Shown here: piece by piece, positions 1,689 through 22,698 of the stretch
Numbering within the stretch: position 1 is the first letter of the stretch
Layout: each line of letters begins with the position of its first letter
Notes under the pieces: generated by a model
Databases searched by the model: none
The model's input: the letters and a program-made list of their open reading frames with translations, nothing else
What the model was told of the DNA's origin: nothing
Made by a program: the position numbers and the translations under genes
Source of the DNA: Chiloscyllium plagiosum
Taxonomy: Eukaryota
Assembly: GCF_004010195.1 (NCBI RefSeq)
Contig: NC_057752.1
Coordinates: forward strand, 2,820,683 to 2,852,783
Direction: 5' to 3'
Length of the DNA: 32,101 nt

Positions 1689-2387
1689 TGTTAGGACATG
1701 GGGTAAACCCTCCTGCTTAATTTAAACCAGCAACTTAGAAAAGATTTATCCCGTGTAGTAATCTCTGAAAATTCGAGAGGCCAAGAACTATTCAAAGTAA
1801 AAGTTAACAACTTTATTTCTTAAAGTCTAACCTAGAATAATTAACTAACAACTATTACAACTCCTTCCTCTAACCTATTGTTTACTTTCCCTTCTATAAT
1901 ACTGGTCCGATAAAACCCCCAAGTAAGATTTACCAAAAATTCAAATTCCAAAACCTGGCAGCTGTCGAATCTTCACTTTGTATCTTCCTCTGTACATTTT
2001 CTTCTCAGGATTTCTCTTTCACTAGTCATTGATAGATAAATGTACCTTTAAGAGAGCTAATTTTCCAGGCAGTCTGCAGATGTTGGTGGCTTGGCAGTTG
2101 TCCCTCAAGTGTTCAATCTTCCCCAGTCTTATGCCCCCAAAGCATTGGATTGTGTCATTGGCTTTTAATGTTGTCAATATTCTAAATTCAAACAGGATTG
2201 GAGTTTGGTATTTTTTGGGGTATAATTTAAACTGATTGGCTGAATTCAAATTTCTTTTTGTATCCAGGCAACCAGCTACTCTAGCTGTTGGACCAAATGT
2301 TACAATGTAACTTCTCCAGCACTCTGTGTGCCTCTCTAAGTCCTTCAATCTCTTCAAGGTATAGTACACTTCTACACCTTCATAACA
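1689..2387 (-). repeat. 3' LTR of the Gmr1-like element
   Basis: TGTTA...TAACA inverted termini; near-identical to 7679-8363; minus-strand AATAAA at 1812-1817; abutted by a polypurine tract. Confidence 0.92.
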
Positions 2388-2400
2388 CCTCCTCCCTTAA
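2388..2400 (-). promoter_or_regulatory. Polypurine tract (plus-strand primer) of the Gmr1-like element
   Basis: Minus strand reads ttAAGGGAGGAGG immediately before the TG that starts the 3' LTR. Confidence 0.85.
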
Positions 2401-2711
2401 GAAAAACTAAACCATCATAATGAAAAGATGGCTTCATTTTTCTTTCTATTCTTTAAACACATCACCCTAGCATACCGATAACTTTAATCTAAGTTCACCT
2501 TAACGTCTTCCTATATACCTATATATATAAAACCAATTAAATAAATATAAATCTCATCTAAACTTTATCAGTTAAATCCATGATAATGCATCTGCGATTA
2601 CGTTCTTACAATCCACAACATGTACAATTTTTAATTTAAAAGTCTGTAACATAAGACTCCAATGAAATAATCTCATTTACTTGTCTTTAAAGAGAATGCT
2701 TTAAAGAATGT

Positions 2712-3031
2712 ATTAGATTAGATTACTTACAGTGTGGAAACAGGCCCTTCGGCCCAACAAGTCCACACCGACCCGCCGAAGCGTATACCACCCAGACCCA
2801 TACTCCTACATTTACCCCTTCACCTAACACTACGGGCAATTTAGCATGGCCAATTCACCTAACCTGCACATTTTTGGATTGTGGGAGGAAACCGGAGCAC
2901 CTGGAGGAAACCCATGCAGACACGGGGAGAATGTGCAAACTCCACACAGAGAGTCGCCTGAGGCGGGAGTTGAACCCGGGTCTTTGGCGCTGAGAGGCAG
3001 CAGTGCTAACCACTGTGCCACCGTGCCGCCC
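2712..3031 (-). mobile_element. tRNA-derived SINE (HE1/V-SINE type) inserted in the RNase H region of the Gypsy element
   Basis: Head GGGCGGCACGGTGGCACAGTGG (A box) and GGTTCAACTCC (B box), V-domain-like core, CR1-like tail with (TCTAA)n. Near-identical to 22377-22698. Confidence 0.9.
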
Positions 3032-6000
3032 ATAAATGTAAGCAGATTGTGATCTGTGTACACAACCTTCTCCGACAATTGTTCGTGACATAGACATTAA
3101 AGTGTTGTAAGGCCAGTACCAAACTCAATAGTTATTTTTCGATCGTGGAGTATTTCCTCTGGTGGATGTTGAGCTTCTTCGAAAACCACCTGGCAGTTCA
3201 ATCCCATCCTCATCCTCCTGTATGAGTGCAGCTCCAACCCCTATGTCACTAGCATTGATGGTGATGTTAAAAGATTTTGAAAAGGTTGGTGTAGCTAAAA
3301 CTGGTTTGGTGGTTAATATGGCTTTCAAATGGTCAAATGCCTCCTGTCCACCGGAACTTTGTGTTCTTCTTCAGCAAATCAGTTAACAGTACCACTACAC
3401 TGCTGAAGGTTGGAACAAACGTTTGATAGAATCCGCTGAGTCTGAAGAATCAAAGCACCTCTTTCTTTAAGGTTGGTTGTGGAAATTCCTCGATGGCCTA
3501 TGTCTTTGTGTTCCATGGGGTCAACCTTCCACGACCGATGTTATGTCCCAAGAATGTCACCTCTGCTTTCGCGAATTCAGTTTTATTTAAGTTTATCACT
3601 AGTTTTGCTTCTCGTAGTCATTCAAAGAGCTCTGCCAACTGTACCATGTGATCTTTCCAGGAATTACCAAAGATCACTTCATCATCCAAACAGACTGCAC
3701 AGTTTGTTAACCCAGCCACAACTCTGTTCATAATTCTTTGGAATGTGGCGGGTGTGTCCTTCATTCCAAAGGGCATCACTTTAAACTGATATAGCTCATT
3801 TTGGGTCACAAACGCAGAAATTTCTTTCGCCATCTCTCGTAAAGATACATGCCAGTAACCATGCATTAAGTCCAACTTGGTGATGTAACTGGCTTGTCTG
3901 ACTTTCTCAATACAGTCCTCCAATCTTGGAATTGGATATGAGTCCGATTTTGTAATGGTATTAACCTTCCGATAATCCACGCATAATCATTGAGTACTGT
4001 CTGGTTTGGGAACTAAGGCGATCGGCGAACTCCACTCGCTCTGGCTTGGTTCGATGATATCCTTGTTGAGCATGGCCTCCACCTCCTTCTGGACCTGTCT
4101 GGCTTTGAAAGGATTAAGCTGATTGGGGTGTTGTTTTATTGAAGCAGTATTTCCTATGTCTACTTCATGTACAATAGTATTAGTCCTCCCCATCTAATTT
4201 TTACATATGTCCTGCTACTGCAATAACAAATCTTTCAACTGTGATCTATGCTCATGAGACAGATAGTTTACTAACCTATCCCACTCTTCAAGGAATTCTT
4301 CATTTTTAAATCTATTTTGAGGCACATCAAAATCCACATCATCTGGATTTGATTCCTCGTTCTGTGGGGCAGTATCTCAGACCGGTTTCTCCTGTTCTTT
4401 CTCTCTTGTATAATACACATTCAACATGTTCACATGAAATACCTGATACCATTTTTTTCTCTATCTGACATCTTTACTAGATAGTTCACCTGACTCAATT
4501 TTTTCTCAATTTGGTAGGGACCACTAAACTTGGCTTTGAAGGGATCTCCTATCACTGGTAACAGTATTAACACCTCATCCCCTCGGGAAAATGTCTGAGT
4601 CACAGAGCTTTTATCTGCCACCTGTTTTATTCTATACTGTGCCCTCTTTAGGTGCTATTTGGCTAACTCACCTACTCTATTTAATCTTTCCCTCACCTCC
4701 AATACATAATCTAAGTGTGAGATCTCTGACTTTGGTCCTGACAATTTTTCTTTAATTAATTTCAAAGCACCTCTCACTTCATTCCCTAATATTAACTCAA
4801 AGTGAGTGAACTGAGTAGATTCATTTGGGTCATCTCTATTGGCAAACTATACGAATGGGATACTTTTATCCCAATCATTTGGGTAATCCTGACAGTGTGC
4901 TCTCAAAGTGGTCTTCAAGGTCTGATGTCACCTTTCTAAAGTTCCCTGGGATTCAGGATGATACACACTGGATTTAAAGTGCTGTATACCTAAGCTATCC
5001 ATAACCTCCTTAAACAGCTTAGCAGCAAAAATTGACCCTTGGTCTGACTGAATCTTTCTGGATAGCCCATACCGTGTGAAGAAAGCTACTAACTCCTCTC
5101 TTACCCTTTTTGCCTTGATACTCCACAATGGAATTGCCTCCAGAAATCTGGTAGACACATCCATTAGGGTTAACAAGTACTGGTTCCCATTTTAAGTTTT
5201 TGGGAGGGGACCTATGCAATCAATTACAACCCGCATGAAAGGTTCTTCAAATGTGGGAATTGGCAACAAAGGGGCTGGTTTTATTACCGCCTGTGGCTTA
5301 CCTACCATTTGGCATGTATGACACGTACGGCAAAAGTTAACCACATCCAGCCCAATACAAATGTTTTCGTACCTTACTCTGTGTCTTTCGTACCCCGATG
5401 TGACCTCATACAGGTAGTTCATGTGCTACCGGCAACACAATCTGGTGCACTACGGCCCATTTCTCCTCTGCACTAACCTGCCGTGGTCTCCATTTTTGTA
5501 TTAGGATTCTTTCAGATAACCCTCCAGAATATTCTCTGCCTCCTTTTCAGAGTACGCATTCACATATATGTTTTATCATCTTGTCTTGCTGTTGCAAGTC
5601 CCTTAGCCTTTCAGGACTAAACACTTCTGTCTGACCCTCTGCCTGTTCAGGTTTTTCCTGTACCATTATGTCAAACAGGGTATCTGCTAAGTGAACCTCA
5701 CCTCCTTCATCTTTCTCTTTACTTTTCACTTTGTGCTGTGACTTATGATAGTGGAATCCGGTTACCACACAGTCTGGGAGAATACCAGGATATTTCTGTT
5801 TTAACTCCTCAGTTTCTTGGTCTTCCTTGGGTTTCTCCACAAGGGGTGTCACTCCCACCTTGGATCCTCCCAAATCATTCCCAAGAACAAATTGAATTCC
5901 TGGAACTGACACTCTGCCAATCACTCCCACTGTAACTTCTCCAGTCTTGAGTTGGCACCCAAACCTGATCTTGCATAGGGGAACGCTAAACTTCTGTCCA

Positions 6001-7560
6001 TCTATCCCACAAATTACCACACTCTCGGGTAACAGATCAGAAAGAGTGCATATTCACTCATTCTTTACTATCAATGACTGGTTAGATCCTGTATCTCTCA
6101 AAATTATAGCTTCTTGTCCTTATCCCCCTGTTCTTTCTGAGTACACTTTACCCACAGAGGTGAATTCTTTGTAGAGGTCAGGTACTAACTCTGTACCCAG
6201 CCCTTGCCTAGTGTGTGCACTCTCCTGCAGCTCCTCGGCTCTTCTTGGGGTGTCCTTTACTACCTTCACTCATGCCACTGCCTTAGCTTCCTTTACCACA
6301 TCTTTTCCCACAGTGCCTTTCTTTAACGACCAGCACTGTGTCTTTACATGTCCAACTTTACCACAGTGGAAGCACGTGAGGTCTTTCACCCCCTTTACAC
6401 CATCTTAGGCTTCTTTTTTTATCCTGTGGTAAATTCTTACCAGTGCTCTCTACTCTTGGTTTCGTAGTGTAAGATCTCCCCTTCTCCCAACTTCTATCCC
6501 TCACATGATGAAATTCTGGCAGGAAGCTTGTCTTATGCACCAACATGTACTCATCTGCGAATTCTGCTGCCTTTCTCACTTCCTGAACTTTCTGTTCCTC
6601 CACGTGAATTCTTACCATCTCTGGCAGTGAGTTTTTAAACTCCTCCAGCAGAATAATCTCTCTTAGAGCCTCATAGGTCTTATCTATTTTCAAAGCATTC
6701 ACCCATTTATCAAAATGACTGTTTAATTCTTTTGAACTCAACATAAGTCTGACCTGGTTCCTTCAGTGTTTCTGAACCGCTGTCTCTATGCTTCTGGTAC
6801 CAATTCATAAGCATTTAAAAATAGCGTGTTTAACCTCTTCGTAATTTCTTGACACCTCATCTGACAGTGCGGCAAATACCTCACTAGCTCTGCCTACCAG
6901 TTTAGTCTGAACTAGCATTACCCATAAATTCTTGGACCACTCCATCTACCCAGCCAATTTTTCAAATGAAATAAAGAAGGCTTCAACATCTTTCTCAATA
7001 AAATGTGGCAGAGTTTTGACATATTTGTATATATCACTATCCTGTCTTTTCATTTCCATCCTGTTAATTTGACTTTGTCGACTAAGACGAAACTTCTCAA
7101 TTTCAAATTCTCTCCTTTTGCCTCTCCCTTTCTTCTCTATCTCTTTGCTCAGCTAAGAACCTCTGTCTTTTTTTTAATCTCTCTCTCTGTTTCTCTTTAT
7201 CTTCTGACTCCATTGTAATTTAAGTTTTTCTACCTTTACTGCACTTGTCTGTTTCTCTGATACACATAAGTGTTTGAGTATTTCCTTTACAATTTCAGCT
7301 TTACTTTTGTCCTTGGTTAAACCCAAACCTAATTTCTTTGCCAATTTTAAAAGTATGGCCTTTTTCTTTCCTTCTAAATTTTCTTGGCAAATTTGAGAAT
7401 CATCTTCAAATCCCAGAACCTCCTTTAGGAATTTTAAGAACCATTTTTCTCACTTCTAATTTAATCAACCACAAATCACTGAAAGTAAACAAATTGTCTC
7501 ACCTACGTTTTATTTAAAGATCTAGGACATTAACCTGCAACCTACTGGGCTTTTTCGTAC

Positions 7561-7680
7561 CCCAAATCTATTCAAATCTGTCTAAACCTGTTGAAATCAC
7601 AAATCCAAAACTCAAACTGTTCAAATCGCAGACAAAAGCCCCCCAAACTATTCAAATCCCAGCGATGAATCCCCAAACTG
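7561..7680 (-). repeat. Primer-binding site (tRNA-Pro-like) repeated as a degenerate tandem array
   Basis: Plus-strand units start at 7571, 7591, 7620 and 7651, each beginning TT(C/G)AAATC and ending ...AAAC(C)T(A/G). The two LTR-proximal units resemble the tRNA-Pro 3' end TTCAAATCCCGGACGAGCCCCCA. Confidence 0.7.
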
Positions 7681-8363
7681 TATGACATGGGGTAAACCCT
7701 CCTGCTTAATTTAAACCAGCAACACAGAAAAGATTTATCCTGTACAGTACTCTGTGAAAATTCGAGAGGCCAAGAACTATTTAAAGTAAAAATTATCAAC
7801 TTTATTTCTGAACGTATAACAATAATTAACTAACAACAATTTACAACTCCTTCCTCTAAACTATCATTTACTTTCCCTTCTATAATACTAATGCGATAAA
7901 ACCCCCAAGTAAAATTTACCAAAAATTCAAATTTCAAAACCCGGCAGCTGTCAAATCTTCGCTTTGTATCTTCCTCTGTAGATTTTCTTCTTCTTAGGAT
8001 TTCTCTTTCACTAGTCATTGATATAAAAATGTACCTTTAGGAGAGCTAATTTTCCAGGCAGTCTGCAGATGTTGGTGGCTTGGTAGTTCTCCCTCAACTG
8101 TTCAATTTTCCCTGGTCTTATATCCCCAAAGCATTGATCGTATCATTGACTTTTAATATTGTCAGTATACTAAATTCAAACAGGTTTGGAGTTTGTTATT
8201 TTTGGGGTATAATTTAAACTGATTGGCCGAATTCAAATTTGTTTTTGTATCCAGACAACCAGCTACTCTAGCTGCTGGACCAAATGTTACAATGTAACTT
8301 CTCCAGCACTGTGTGCCTAAGTCCTTCACTCTCAAAGGTACAGTACACTTCTATACCTTCACA
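7679..8363 (-). repeat. 5' LTR of the Gmr1-like element
   Basis: Direct repeat of 1689-2387. The minus strand carries a CCAAT (~8222-8226), a TATAA (8118-8122) and an AATAAA (7801-7806) in U3-R order. The outer end is ambiguous by a few nt; AAAG occurs on both flanks (possible 4-bp TSD). Confidence 0.9.
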
Positions 8364-8489
8364 TAAAAAGGCAATAAGCTGAGACTGAAGGCCCCAACCT
8401 GTGGCATTGTAAGTGTTCAGGTAGGCTTCCACAGATTATTTCGCATCTATTCACCACCTAATAGGCCTGGTGTTCCAGGAGATCATTAA

Positions 8490-9467: not shown

Positions 9468-9677
9468 TCGTGGGTGTGGCGCTGGAAAAGCACAGCAGGT
9501 CAGGCAGCATCTGAGGAGCAGGAGAATCAATGTTTCGGGGATAAGCCCTTCATCAGGAATGATTTATGCCTGAAACGTCGATTTTCCTGCTCCTCGGATG
9601 CTACCTGACCTGCTGTGCTTTTCCAGCACCATACCCTCTCGTCTGATCTTCAGCATCTGCAGTCCTCACTGTCTCTA
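9468..9677. mobile_element. Palindromic non-autonomous mini-element, probably derived from a Penelope pseudo-LTR, with a 14-bp TSD
   Basis: Inverted arms ~9474-9545 and ~9564-9634 (gctggaaaagcacagcaggtcagg / cctgacctgctgtgcttttccagc). Flanked by tactatgtctagtg (9454-9467) and tactgtgtctagtg (9678-9691). Confidence 0.8.
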
Positions 9678-11689: not shown

Positions 11690-11990
11690 ATTGAGGCTAT
11701 TTGGCCCTTCACCTTTTCAGCAAGAGCATCTCAGCTAGTCCCACTTCCTGATCAGCCTGATCCAATTTCCTTTTGAAGCCCATAATGGAATCTGCCATCA
11801 CCTGCATCAGGCAGTGCATGCCAGATCCCAACCACCTGGTGTGCATAAAAACTTTCCCACATCCTACTTGGTTTGTTTGCTAATTACATGAAATTAGGGT
11901 CCTCTGCTTCTCAATCCCTCTACAAACAGGAACAGTTTCTAATCTGTCTATGCCACTCTGTCTAGACCCCTCATGATGTTGTGATTTTAT
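11690..11990 (-). mobile_element. Old CR1 3'-end remnant
   Basis: Reverse complement resembles the CR1 ORF2 C-terminal/3' UTR sequences at 8800-9150 and 30931-31365. Confidence 0.55.
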
Positions 11991-12835: not shown

Positions 12836-13101
12836 ACCTGAAGGGCAATTAAGGATGGCCATCCAAATGTGTCCATATTCCATGAACATCATCGTTGGCA
12901 CTCCAAAGGCAGTTCCCAGTTAGGGCAAAAGAAAAACATGGCCTTCACGGTCACTGCCAGTGAGTCCTGGGTCAATTTGTTGCTCTGTTTATTGCAGCTC
13001 AGTGGGTCACACTCTTGCTTCTGTTATTCCTGTCAAACATTCATTTTTAAATCATTGGCTGGAGACAAACAATAGACTTTTTAAAAAAAGGCAGTCTTTT
13101 A

Positions 13102-13430
13102 GGTGGCACAGTGGCTCAGCAGTTAGCACTGCTGCCTCACAGCACTAGGGACCCGGGTTCGATCTCCACCTTGGGCAACTGTCTGTATGGAGTTTGCACG
13201 TTCTCCCTTGGTTTCCTCCAGGTGCTCCGGTTTCCTCCCACAATCCAAAGACATGCAGGTTTGGTGAATTGGCCTTGCTAAATTGCCCCACAGTGTTCAG
13301 GGATGTGTAGGTTAGGTGCATTAGTCAGGGGTAAACATAGGGGAATGGATCTGGGTGGGAAAGTCTTCAAAGGATCGGTGTGGACTTTTGGGCCAAATGG
13401 CCTGTTTCCATACTGTGGGGAGTCTATGAT
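13102..13430 (+). mobile_element. HE1/V-SINE-type SINE (older copy) in intron 7
   Basis: ggtggcacagtggctcagcagttagcactgctgcctcacagc...GGTTCGATCTCC; same core and tail as 22377-22698. Confidence 0.87.
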
Positions 13431-16395: not shown

Positions 16396-17690
16396 GTAAA
16401 GTTTGCTCACTGAGCTGGAAGGTTTGTTTTCAGACGTTTCATCACCATACTAGGTAACATCAGTGACAGTCTCTGGTGAAGTGCAGGTGGTATGTCCCGC
16501 CTCTCTATTTATAGGTCTTGGTTTCTTAACCTACAAACAGGTCAAAGGATCACCCATGGGATCCCCAATATCAGGGCTCATAGCAGAAGCAGGAATGCAG
16601 AGACTTGAACAAGCTGCCCTCCCATCTATCCAACCCAAACTTTGGGCCTGCTACGTAGATGACACCTTTGTCATCACAAAATGGAACATACAACACCATT
16701 AACAATATCCCGACAGGCATAACATTCACAAAAGAGAAGGAGAACAACAACAAATTCCCATTCCTAGACGTGACAGTTGAACGTACAGTTAATAGAGAGC
16801 TTCAAACCAGCGGGTACAGAAAAACAAATACTTAACTTCCGAAGCAATCATCCCAACACCCACTAATGGAGCTGCACTAAGACATTATTTCAATACATCA
16901 TACTGCAGCACCCAAGAACTACAAAAAACAGAAGAAAAATATTTACACAACATTTTCAAGAAAAATGGTTACCCAATAAACACAATCCGCTGATTCCTCA
17001 GAAACAAGCCCAAACAAGCAGACACAACGCAACCAAAAACTATAGCCACATTACCCAACGTCAAAGGCATATCAGGAATGACTTCCAGATTACTCAGATC
17101 CCTTGGTGTCATGGTAGCCCACAAACCTACCAATACACTTAAACAGCGACCAATTAACCTAAAGGATCCATTAGATACTACAAGCAAAACTAGCATCATT
17201 TATAAGATACCATGCAAGAACTGTAAAAAACACTATATCGGACAAACTAGCAGGAAACTTGTCACCAGGATACATAAACACCAGCTGGCCACCAAAAGAC
17301 ACGACTCACTCTCACTAGTTTCTATACATACAGACAAGACGGACACCACTTTGACTGGATCAACACACACATCCTAGGACAGGCGAAACAAAGGCACACA
17401 CAAGAATTCTTAGAGGCATAGCATTCTAACCAGAACTCCATCAATAAACACATCAACTTAGATCCTGTCTACCTTTCCTTGAAAAGAATGTAAAATAACA
17501 TCACCCACCTTAAGAAACTAAGACCTATAAATAGAGAGGCAGGACATACCACCAATTCTTTACCGGGACTCTCACTGGTGACGTTACCTAGTGTGGTGAC
17601 GAAATGTCTGAAAACAAACCTTCCAGCTCAGCAAGCTAACTTATAGACTTATCATGAACCCTGAGCTACAAATCTTCTCAAAAATCGTTA
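16396..17690 (+). mobile_element. Penelope-like retroelement (5'-truncated RT + GIY-YIG endonuclease) with an inverted 5' pseudo-LTR
   Basis: RT motifs YKQVKGSPMGSPISG...WACYVDDTF and endonuclease motif IIYKIPCKNCKKHYIGQTSR. 16396-16529 is the inverted copy of 17510-17642. ACATCAT TSD at 16389-16395 and 17691-17697. Confidence 0.9.
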
Positions 17691-21202: not shown

Positions 21203-22376
21203 CTAAACACATTGGATAACAAACACCATGAGGAGACAACACAACCTGGTCCAGAAATAGAAACTTGATGATGGAATCTCCCACTCTTCAGCAATGTCCA
21301 CTGTTCACTTCCCACCATGGCTTTTCGCTTGTTGCAGTAACTCCCCCTTCTTGCTGATCGATATTTTAAACTTTCACACAATTTCAGCCTCAGTTGTAGG
21401 TTTGGACATTTTTTTCTGCCCACGTTTTTCTTTTTGACATTCTTTAACCCTGTACCTGTAACTTTGCTGTCAAGTACGTAGTTCAGAATATTGTTAAGTT
21501 GATGTAAGAAGTCTTAACTGTGCTCCTCAGTCCAGCTTACTGGGTGTAAACAAACCCTTTGTGTCCTTTCCCTTCAGGGATTAAATGTGCTTTGGATGTC
21601 TGATAATCAGCTGCTTCTCATGGGTATTCGATTCAGATTTCCCCCCTTAGCTGACGGGTTTTTACTGCTCTTACTGCTTTTTTAAAAGATTTTTTCCCAA
21701 GTACTGTACTGGCTATGAAAGGTTTTTTTGTTGTGACTTACAGTGATGGTTATTCTGGACAAGGTTTCTGTTCAGAGATGTTTACTTCACAGTAGGAGTT
21801 CAGCCCTATGACCTTATGGTTGTTAGCTGCTGTTAAGGCTGTACCGATCATTTTTTTTTAAAAGGTTACTTTTTAAAGTCCTTCTCTTCTCCACGAGATG
21901 TCAGGTCTGTTTCCTGTCTTCACTGCTGCCGTGATTTTTTTTCAGCAGTGAGTCCCCTTGGTTGCCACCACCGTTTATGGTATGATTTGATGCTACACTA
22001 TGAGCATCAGATCAAGACAGACTGGTCAAAGAGAAGGCAAACTGATGAGCTATCCTCAGGCCTAGACTTCAAAGTAGCACTATTTATTATGTGATAATAT
22101 TAAATCCTGCTATACACGGTAATCAAAGATATACCAGGCTCTGACTTACAGCCACGGTAGGTAAGGATTAGTCCATCTACTTCATGTCCATGGGTCTTCC
22201 AGTCTGTTCAAACGCCACCCATTTATACTCGGTGATGTGCAGCTCTGTGATATCATTGCAAAATTGCTCCAGGGTCTTGAAGCCCTTAAACGTACTTTGT
22301 TTCTGAGTCCAATACTGTGTTATATTTCGAGTGTCTAAAGGTTTCTTTGCCAAGCTGGCTTTAAGAGACAGATTGT

Positions 22377-22698
22377 GGGCGGCACGGTGGCACAGTGGTT
22401 AGCACTGCTGCCTCGCAGCGCCAGAGACCCGGGTTCAATTCCCGACTCAGGCGACTGACTGTGTGGAGTTTGCACGTTCTCCCCGTGTCTGCGTGGGTTT
22501 CCTCCGGGTTCTCCGGTTTCCTCCCACAGTCACAAAGATGTGCAGGTTAGGTGAATTGGTCATACTAAATTGCCCGTAGTGTTAGGTAAGGGGTAAATGT
22601 AGGGGTATGGGTGGGTTTCGCTTCGGCGGGTCGGTGTGGACTTGTTGGGCCGAAAGGCCTGTTTCCACACTGTAATCTAATCTAATCTAATCTAATCT
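22377..22698 (+). mobile_element. HE1/V-SINE-type SINE, young full-length copy
   Basis: A box TGGCACAGTGG, B box GGTTCAATTCC, V-domain-like ctgtgtggagtttgcacgttctccccgtgtctgcgtgggtttcctcc, tail ctgtttccacactg(taatc)n; CpGs retained. Confidence 0.92.

Follow-up and report, generated by a model that had tools for sequence, protein, structure and literature searches.

The leader of a decayed Gmr1-like Ty3/gypsy LTR element, which runs on the minus strand from about 8366 down to 1689 of a 32-kb window (i.e., the whole stretch of DNA that was analysed, 32,101 nucleotides), carries a stack of primer-site modules, the module consisting of a few LTR-end bases followed by a stretch complementary to the tRNA-Pro tail as far as position 54. 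The element itself is an ordinary dead one, and the array is a real, lineage-level and variable feature of it. We consider it plausible, if somewhat short of probable, that this variable-number stack grew by out-of-register plus-strand strong-stop DNA transfer, each transfer adding an LTR end together with an extended tRNA-Pro site.

Gmr1-like Ty3/gypsy retrotransposons are reportedly the subject of Goodwin and Poulter (2002). A first-pass annotation, made from the window sequence, had assigned the element to this group, and the Pfam domain set and order bear this out: stop-free pieces of the minus strand give, in order, SCAN, zinc knuckle, three integrase models, RT and RNase H. The parts of the element are as follows.

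7679..8366, minus strand: 5' LTR, terminating in CA (7680-7679) and with an approximate start; direct repeat of 1689-2387
6273..7449, minus strand: gag with a SCAN domain and a zinc knuckle, interrupted by stops and frameshifts (three-frame translation)
4433..5425, minus strand: integrase remnants, upstream of RT (PF17921; PF00665, E 4.5e-10; PF22938)
2581..4193, minus strand: remnants of RT and RNase H with a SINE inserted (PF00078, E 6.6e-19; PF17919, E 3e-13; tblastn)
2727..3035, minus strand: SINE-like insertion in RNase H, related to copies at 13097-13392 and 22373-22675 (we take all three to be tRNA-headed SINE copies, which resemble SINEs of cartilaginous fish)
2388..2398, minus strand: polypurine tract, recognised from sequence
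1689..2387, minus strand: 3' LTR, TG...CA, without primer-site modules

Within gag, the SCAN domain (PF02023) was found with an E-value of 2e-8 and 34.2 bits against a cut-off of 27, and the zinc knuckle (PF00098) with an E-value of 4e-5; searches made with SCAN fragments returned no matches. A tblastn search with an intact relative was colinear with the window element, and many of its top RT relatives have the same domain set. In the available text of PMC3587641 and PMC4592553, the Gmr1-like group is defined by an integrase placed before RT and by a SCAN-like gag; the window element has its integrase 5' of RT/RNase H and a SCAN-like capsid domain in gag. Two LTRs, a primer site and a polypurine tract are all present, with degradation of the target-site duplication and at the start of the 5' LTR, and the LTRs differ from each other at 60 of 681 aligned columns (K2P 0.094). 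Features of endogenous retroviruses, namely env and an integrase after RT, were not found in the window element: the integrase lies 5' of RT and only about 190 nt separate the end of RNase H from the polypurine tract, which leaves no room for env. Elsewhere the window contains a near-palindrome of 165 nt (9472-9636) and a 1.2-kb stretch with long terminal inverted repeats (16399-17642).

The array begins directly downstream of the terminal CA of the 5' LTR (7680-7679) and a 3-nt spacer. Four to five units had been annotated here, and five strings are indeed present, listed below from the LTR towards gag.

7651..7680, minus strand: unit 1, the LTR-terminal CA, the 3-nt spacer and the LTR-adjacent site complementary to tRNA-Pro 76-54, with a 2-nt insertion; score 29
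7620..7650, minus strand: unit 2, an LTR-end pentamer and a tRNA-Pro complement, 3 nt beyond the length of the tRNA tail; score 28
7591..7619, minus strand: unit 3, a decayed module with the junction motif; score 14
7571..7590, minus strand: unit 4, a short module that retains the T-loop octamer alone, common family-wide; score 16
7540..7570, minus strand: unit 5, scrambled and partial in the window copy; score 12

The units had also been placed inside the 5' LTR, which we reject for the window copy: the LTR repeat ends before the array, and the 3' LTR has none of the units. Scores were calculated with a 23-nt tRNA-Pro complement taken from locus L106 and compared with those of 21,249 background 30-mers. 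The background maximum was 23, which puts units 1 and 2 above all 21,249 windows and upholds the assignment of the two proximal units to the tRNA-Pro 3' end. By contrast, the scores of units 3, 4 and 5 were reached by 4%, 1% and 15% of the background, respectively, and these units are thus not significant singly but are recognisable by their shared junction alone. Specifically, a 14-nt junction motif, allowing two mismatches at most, occurs four times in the 32-kb window, each time within 7565-7658, where chance would give a mean of 0.63 and none of 100 shuffles had as many as four. This was a stronger test than the clustering of a looser form of the T-loop octamer, which was weak (22 of 2000 random placements). 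An LTR-end/primer-site junction had been described for each unit; the four occurrences agree with this, but the junction between units 3 and 4 is not clean family-wide, as at 7589 most of the aligned depth differs from the window copy. Tandem Repeats Finder, at a score of 30, did not report the array, Rfam gave nothing at the gathering score for the window (two weak, irrelevant matches), and ARAGORN found no tRNA gene in the window or in 88 loci of the viral collection.

Compared with the tRNA, units 1, 2, 3 and 4 of the window copy are offset in length by +2, +3, +1 and -8 nt, respectively, unit 5 being scrambled. The insertion in unit 1 lies at a different place from that in unit 2, so neither unit is a plain copy of the other; the insertions in units 2 and 3 coincide. 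The tRNA species is Pro in every recognisable unit. We dropped the possibility that part of unit 1 derives from tRNA-Thr, because other copies of the family differ there in CpG fashion and match Pro. In unit 5, near 7545-7555, a short inverted stretch is complementary to the T-stem part of the primer site and could fold back onto a module.

Modules start at the terminal (C)A of the LTR and end in the complement of the T-loop. The plus-strand sequence is AACTG-T(T)A at the LTR end and AACTG-TTCAAATC at the junction of units 2 and 3, and at full junctions GTT represents the terminal bases of the LTR and tRNA G53-T54-U55 at once, a 3-nt overlap that is likely to be the jump point. The T-loop octamer common to the units corresponds to tRNA T54-C61, numbered from the human tRNA-Pro tail as printed in PMC12217144 and PMC5159642. 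The extension into the T-loop that had been reported is present as far as T54 but can be read one base further, to G53, where it overlaps the LTR-end bases. Pairing past m1A58 had been regarded as unusual; it is seen here but is not exceptional, given that complementarity to the primer tRNA in lentiviruses extends to just before U54, the second RT stop (described in the part of PMC8599865 available to us), and that 6 of 22 other Pro-type sites match the tRNA over 21-23 nt. The extension is also a standing trait of the family, occurring in copies with a short layout as well, which weakens the interpretation first proposed. An exact T-loop octamer found at 7405-7412, at the start of gag, is probably there by chance.

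In the mechanism that we favour, RT would copy the primer tRNA past A58 to about G53, and the minus strand would end a few bases into leftover U5 RNA. The 3' end of the plus strand (...GAAC) would then pair over 3 nt with the end of the minus strand, instead of primer site with primer site, such that a new tRNA-templated module would be written on the LTR side, ahead of the old site. Indel damage to the old site would presumably promote mis-registration of this kind, and none of the inner units here is free of an indel. With its LTR end still valid and a primer site still beside the LTR, the product would be able to transpose and hand the stack down; the absence of modules from the 3' LTR implies that the LTR-adjacent site alone defined the LTR of the window copy. 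Boundaries at the LTR terminus and in the T-loop are what one would expect of a polymerase jumping at a forced stop and not of random slippage. The ingredients have precedents in the available texts: read-through of A58 by HIV-1 RT to a second stop near U54 is documented (PMC8599865), and the A58 methyl group is present on tRNA-Pro (PMC11251516). The differing indel positions of units 1 and 2 also speak for capture from the tRNA. The inner units would likely be tolerated relics.

To examine other copies of the family, contigs of four sequencing runs were aligned to 7400-7850 (451 bases) at 80% likeness. Organism A, with three runs, yielded 5733, 4480 and 5506 such contigs, and organism B, with one, yielded 102. 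Thousands of aligned contigs per organism A run imply that the family is very abundant, although aligned depth does not equal copy number, and low depth over units 1-2 also reflects decay of the window copy. Aligned depth is high at 7560-7591 (units 4-5) in the three organism A runs, and these units are covered in organism B. Among the 12 of 92 between-joint strings listed, 11 were distinct, and in 10 of these 11 a single module stands in place of units 1-3. Read by eye, the 10 short strings comprise three that equal the tRNA in length (one has an additional base), four with an insertion like that of unit 3 and three with an insertion like that of unit 1. A long layout was seen in 6 of the 32 contig pieces listed (out of about 16,050): these span all or most of units 1-4 with few gaps, at similar length and with 14-17% other letters, although one copy may recur across runs.

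The contigs thus show that module number is polymorphic, with the long layout inherited by transposition and the gag-side units common to all copies; the direction of change is unrooted, and short copies could be deletions between identical octamers. Variation in unit number among copies was the very test that had been proposed. The number does vary, and short and long layouts have the gag-side units in common, so the result does not refute the interpretation first put forward. The presence of units 4-5 in both layouts is also what addition on the LTR side predicts. Two further claims hold in part. The fifth unit is partial in the window copy, as annotated, but in each run 62-76 contigs have loose ends at 7540, whose sequence looks like one more octamer of the T-loop kind. 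The rise in decay with distance from the LTR partly reflects the window copy's own decay, since unit-3-type sites elsewhere match the tRNA much better; at 7666-7670, within unit 1, several contigs per run match the tRNA where the window copy differs.

These data bear on a simpler explanation, in which the repeats arose by local DNA slippage in the window copy alone, after its insertion. The copy is old (its LTRs are 9% apart) and the units are short and neighbouring, as slippage would have them. However, contigs about 83-86% alike to the window copy span the same layout, which largely refutes an origin in one copy; moreover, the units are only about two-thirds identical to one another, and their boundaries coincide with the LTR end and the T-loop. 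We regard slippage as very improbable.

The short strings also count against repeated capture from the tRNA. Sites like unit 1 stand alone beside the LTR in 3 of the 10 short strings listed and unit-3-type sites in 4 of the 10 (with joints at 7600, 7606 and 7608 to the LTR); with the same variants found alone in short copies, a stacking of genomic variants fits as well. Unit 1 is itself imperfect, as a fresh copy of the tRNA should lack its 2-nt insertion, and with Pro as the tRNA in all recognisable units no primer switch marks a capture. Repeated capture, the explanation first proposed, is backed by the modules of LTR end and tRNA-Pro and by the boundary and polarity seen in a second family (L003, see below), but sits uneasily with the insertion in unit 1 and the single tRNA species.

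An alternative template would be the genomic RNA. Here, RT at the 5' end of a primer-site RNA fragment would use the GTT/AAC match to jump to a module's T-loop-complement end, either on the same genomic RNA or on a co-packaged one, and would recopy that module, so that the stack would be a duplication or recombination of genomic primer-site variants and read-through of the tRNA would be needed only once, to create the extended site. Such a jump would leave the same junction as tRNA capture, and it accommodates the resemblance of units 1 and 3 to the non-tRNA variants of short-layout copies, the shared insertion place of units 2 and 3, and the T-loop extension already found in short copies. HIV-1 offers a known case of partial primer-site duplication (available text of PMC3185550), and two related loci, L001 and L004, repeat only the 3' hexamer of their site with its flank. 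On the other hand, the difference in indel position between units 1 and 2 means that a heterologous partner RNA would be needed, and in L003 four bases that match the tRNA are present in the LTR-side module but absent from the inner one. We see recopying of genomic RNA as a real possibility, though a rather doubtful one.

For comparison with other families, we started from an alignment of 26 intact relatives and recovered loci from three collections, in which the 79 loci from genome contigs contained one usable relative (L170); a protein search across the full library contributed nothing further. A Pro-type site could be located in 11 families, L006, L020, L022 and short loci being left out as having no locatable site. 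No repeat was found in 9 of these 11 families (seven tested, two by eye). L001 (2967-3030) and L004 (813-880) repeat the 6-nt 3' hexamer of the site together with about 15 nt of flank two to three times downstream, similar to the partial duplication of HIV-1; these repeats were recognised by eye and were not significant in the test. The primer sites of Gmr1-like relatives are often only 13-15 nt long or contain indels; such short or bulged sites count against capture, as they mean that renewal from the tRNA is not routine in the group. As controls, 22 other Pro-type sites from the viral collection, which we take to be retroviral, were examined after exclusion of L108, which shares its contig with L001, and of L129, which lies too close to a contig end, and none had a second module at p < 0.01. 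A search for tandem sites across the viral contigs retrieved two unrelated simple repeats only.

The remaining family, L003, consists of three head-to-tail Gmr1-like copies with shared LTRs, 97.8-99.0% identical, whose primer-site regions (254-420, 6075-6240 and 11799-11965) hold two, one and two modules. The extra module is 31 or 35 nt long and starts at the terminal A of the LTR, and in the two-module copies none of 500 shuffles attains the module score. In one of the copies all 18 nt of the tRNA complement are present in the LTR-side module, against 13 nt in the inner module and 6 nt in a third remnant. L003 appears to provide one independent parallel, supported by the same module boundary and polarity in young copies, although its assembly may be error-prone and the head-to-tail arrangement may represent either a tandem array in the genome or a concatemer from amplification. 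Its modules lack the T-loop extension and contain 11 junction bases unexplained by the tRNA, which tells against capture. With this parallel in mind, we tentatively entertain a broader scenario that we hold to be somewhat improbable as a whole, namely a recurring, polarised renewal of primer sites in Gmr1-like elements: a damaged site and read-through into the T-loop would let the T-loop's universal GTT pair with the AAC-A terminus of the element itself, a fresh site would be written on the LTR side and old ones pushed inward, and the leader would become a time-ordered record of RT errors, in the window element and independently in L003.

It is also conceivable that selection maintains the repeats, as extra boxes pairing with the T-loop, as spare primer sites or as decoys for tRNA fragments, in the manner of multipartite primer sites, and the long form may be ancestral, with the short ones derived from it. 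Survival of the T-loop octamer in four units while the rest decays would fit, as would the occurrence of unit 4 family-wide and in the second organism, and Gypsy, Ty1 and Ty3 provide examples of additional boxes that bind the tRNA (available text of PMC1635307). Yet the octamer contains no CpG and should decay more slowly than the CpG-rich middle of the module, short layouts predominate among the junction strings listed, and the 9 related families mentioned above do without a repeat. The leader of the window copy (7500-7720) also shows nothing unusual in its predicted RNA fold, as 54 of 200 shuffles fold as well (z -0.53). Maintenance by selection is, in our judgement, unlikely.

Parts of this picture are already known from the available texts, i.e., extended pairing in lentiviruses, partial duplication in HIV-1 and extra tRNA boxes in Gypsy, Ty1 and Ty3. 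Within the Gmr1-like group, the window element resembles the fetched relatives in its integrase before RT, SCAN-like gag and Pro-type primer site but differs from the single-site families in its stack and its T-loop extension. As in lentiviruses, pairing passes position 58 into the T-loop; there, however, the site is single and the extension allows in-register transfer, whereas in the window element it also gives the 3-nt match to the LTR end. The MAL-type insertion of HIV-1, a 23-nt partial duplication of the primer site reported for 14% of HIV-1 isolates (available text of PMC3185550), similarly places extra primer-site sequence directly 3' of the functional site and is inherited by lineage. 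It is a single partial copy without an LTR end; by contrast, the window array has whole modules with LTR-end bases, up to five and in variable number, and so does not match that type. The bipartite or multipartite sites of Drosophila Gypsy, Ty3 and Ty1 likewise have more than one tRNA-complementary stretch, but, in the part of PMC1635307 available to us, these boxes are each complementary to a separate part of a single tRNA and may be widely spaced; boxes for different tRNA parts were not found in the window, where all recognisable units match 76-54 and repeat this 3' segment head to tail. Two primer sites in one family are mentioned, without detail, in the available text of PMC3212995. A search of mostly open papers on primer-site arrays, duplication and read-through, with the founding Gmr1 papers and repeat databases outside its scope, returned no tandem arrays in Gmr1-like elements.

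The fidelity of primer-site renewal and the stop of the plus strand on the tRNA are known mostly from a few retroviruses and yeast elements. An abundant family with countable modules would let genomes show both the stop site (from module ends) and its history (from module order), and stacking would explain how an element survives despite a damaged primer site. The stack also serves as a warning that annotation tools may call the wrong primer site. Should it turn out to be no more than a duplication in the genome, it would be a curiosity, little removed from the HIV-1 insertion.

Three smaller observations concern the primer sites of the relatives. A 2-nt insertion between primer-site bases 9 and 10 (tRNA G68/C67) occurs in three unrelated Gmr1-like families (L004:813-836, L170:5968-5990 and window 7620-7650, and also in the junction strings of the window family), with different inserted bases; L001, otherwise 97-99.5% identical to L004, lacks it. 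Such recurrence may mark a frequent end of the plus strand with untemplated additions. L015 (56-79) has a single 18-nt Pro site followed, after a 1-nt insertion and with one mismatch, by a near complement of the T-loop. Finally, the L170 contig as a whole is a full-length Gmr1-like element; it is catalogued under a bacterial metagenome-assembled genome, where it most likely represents contamination from a host.
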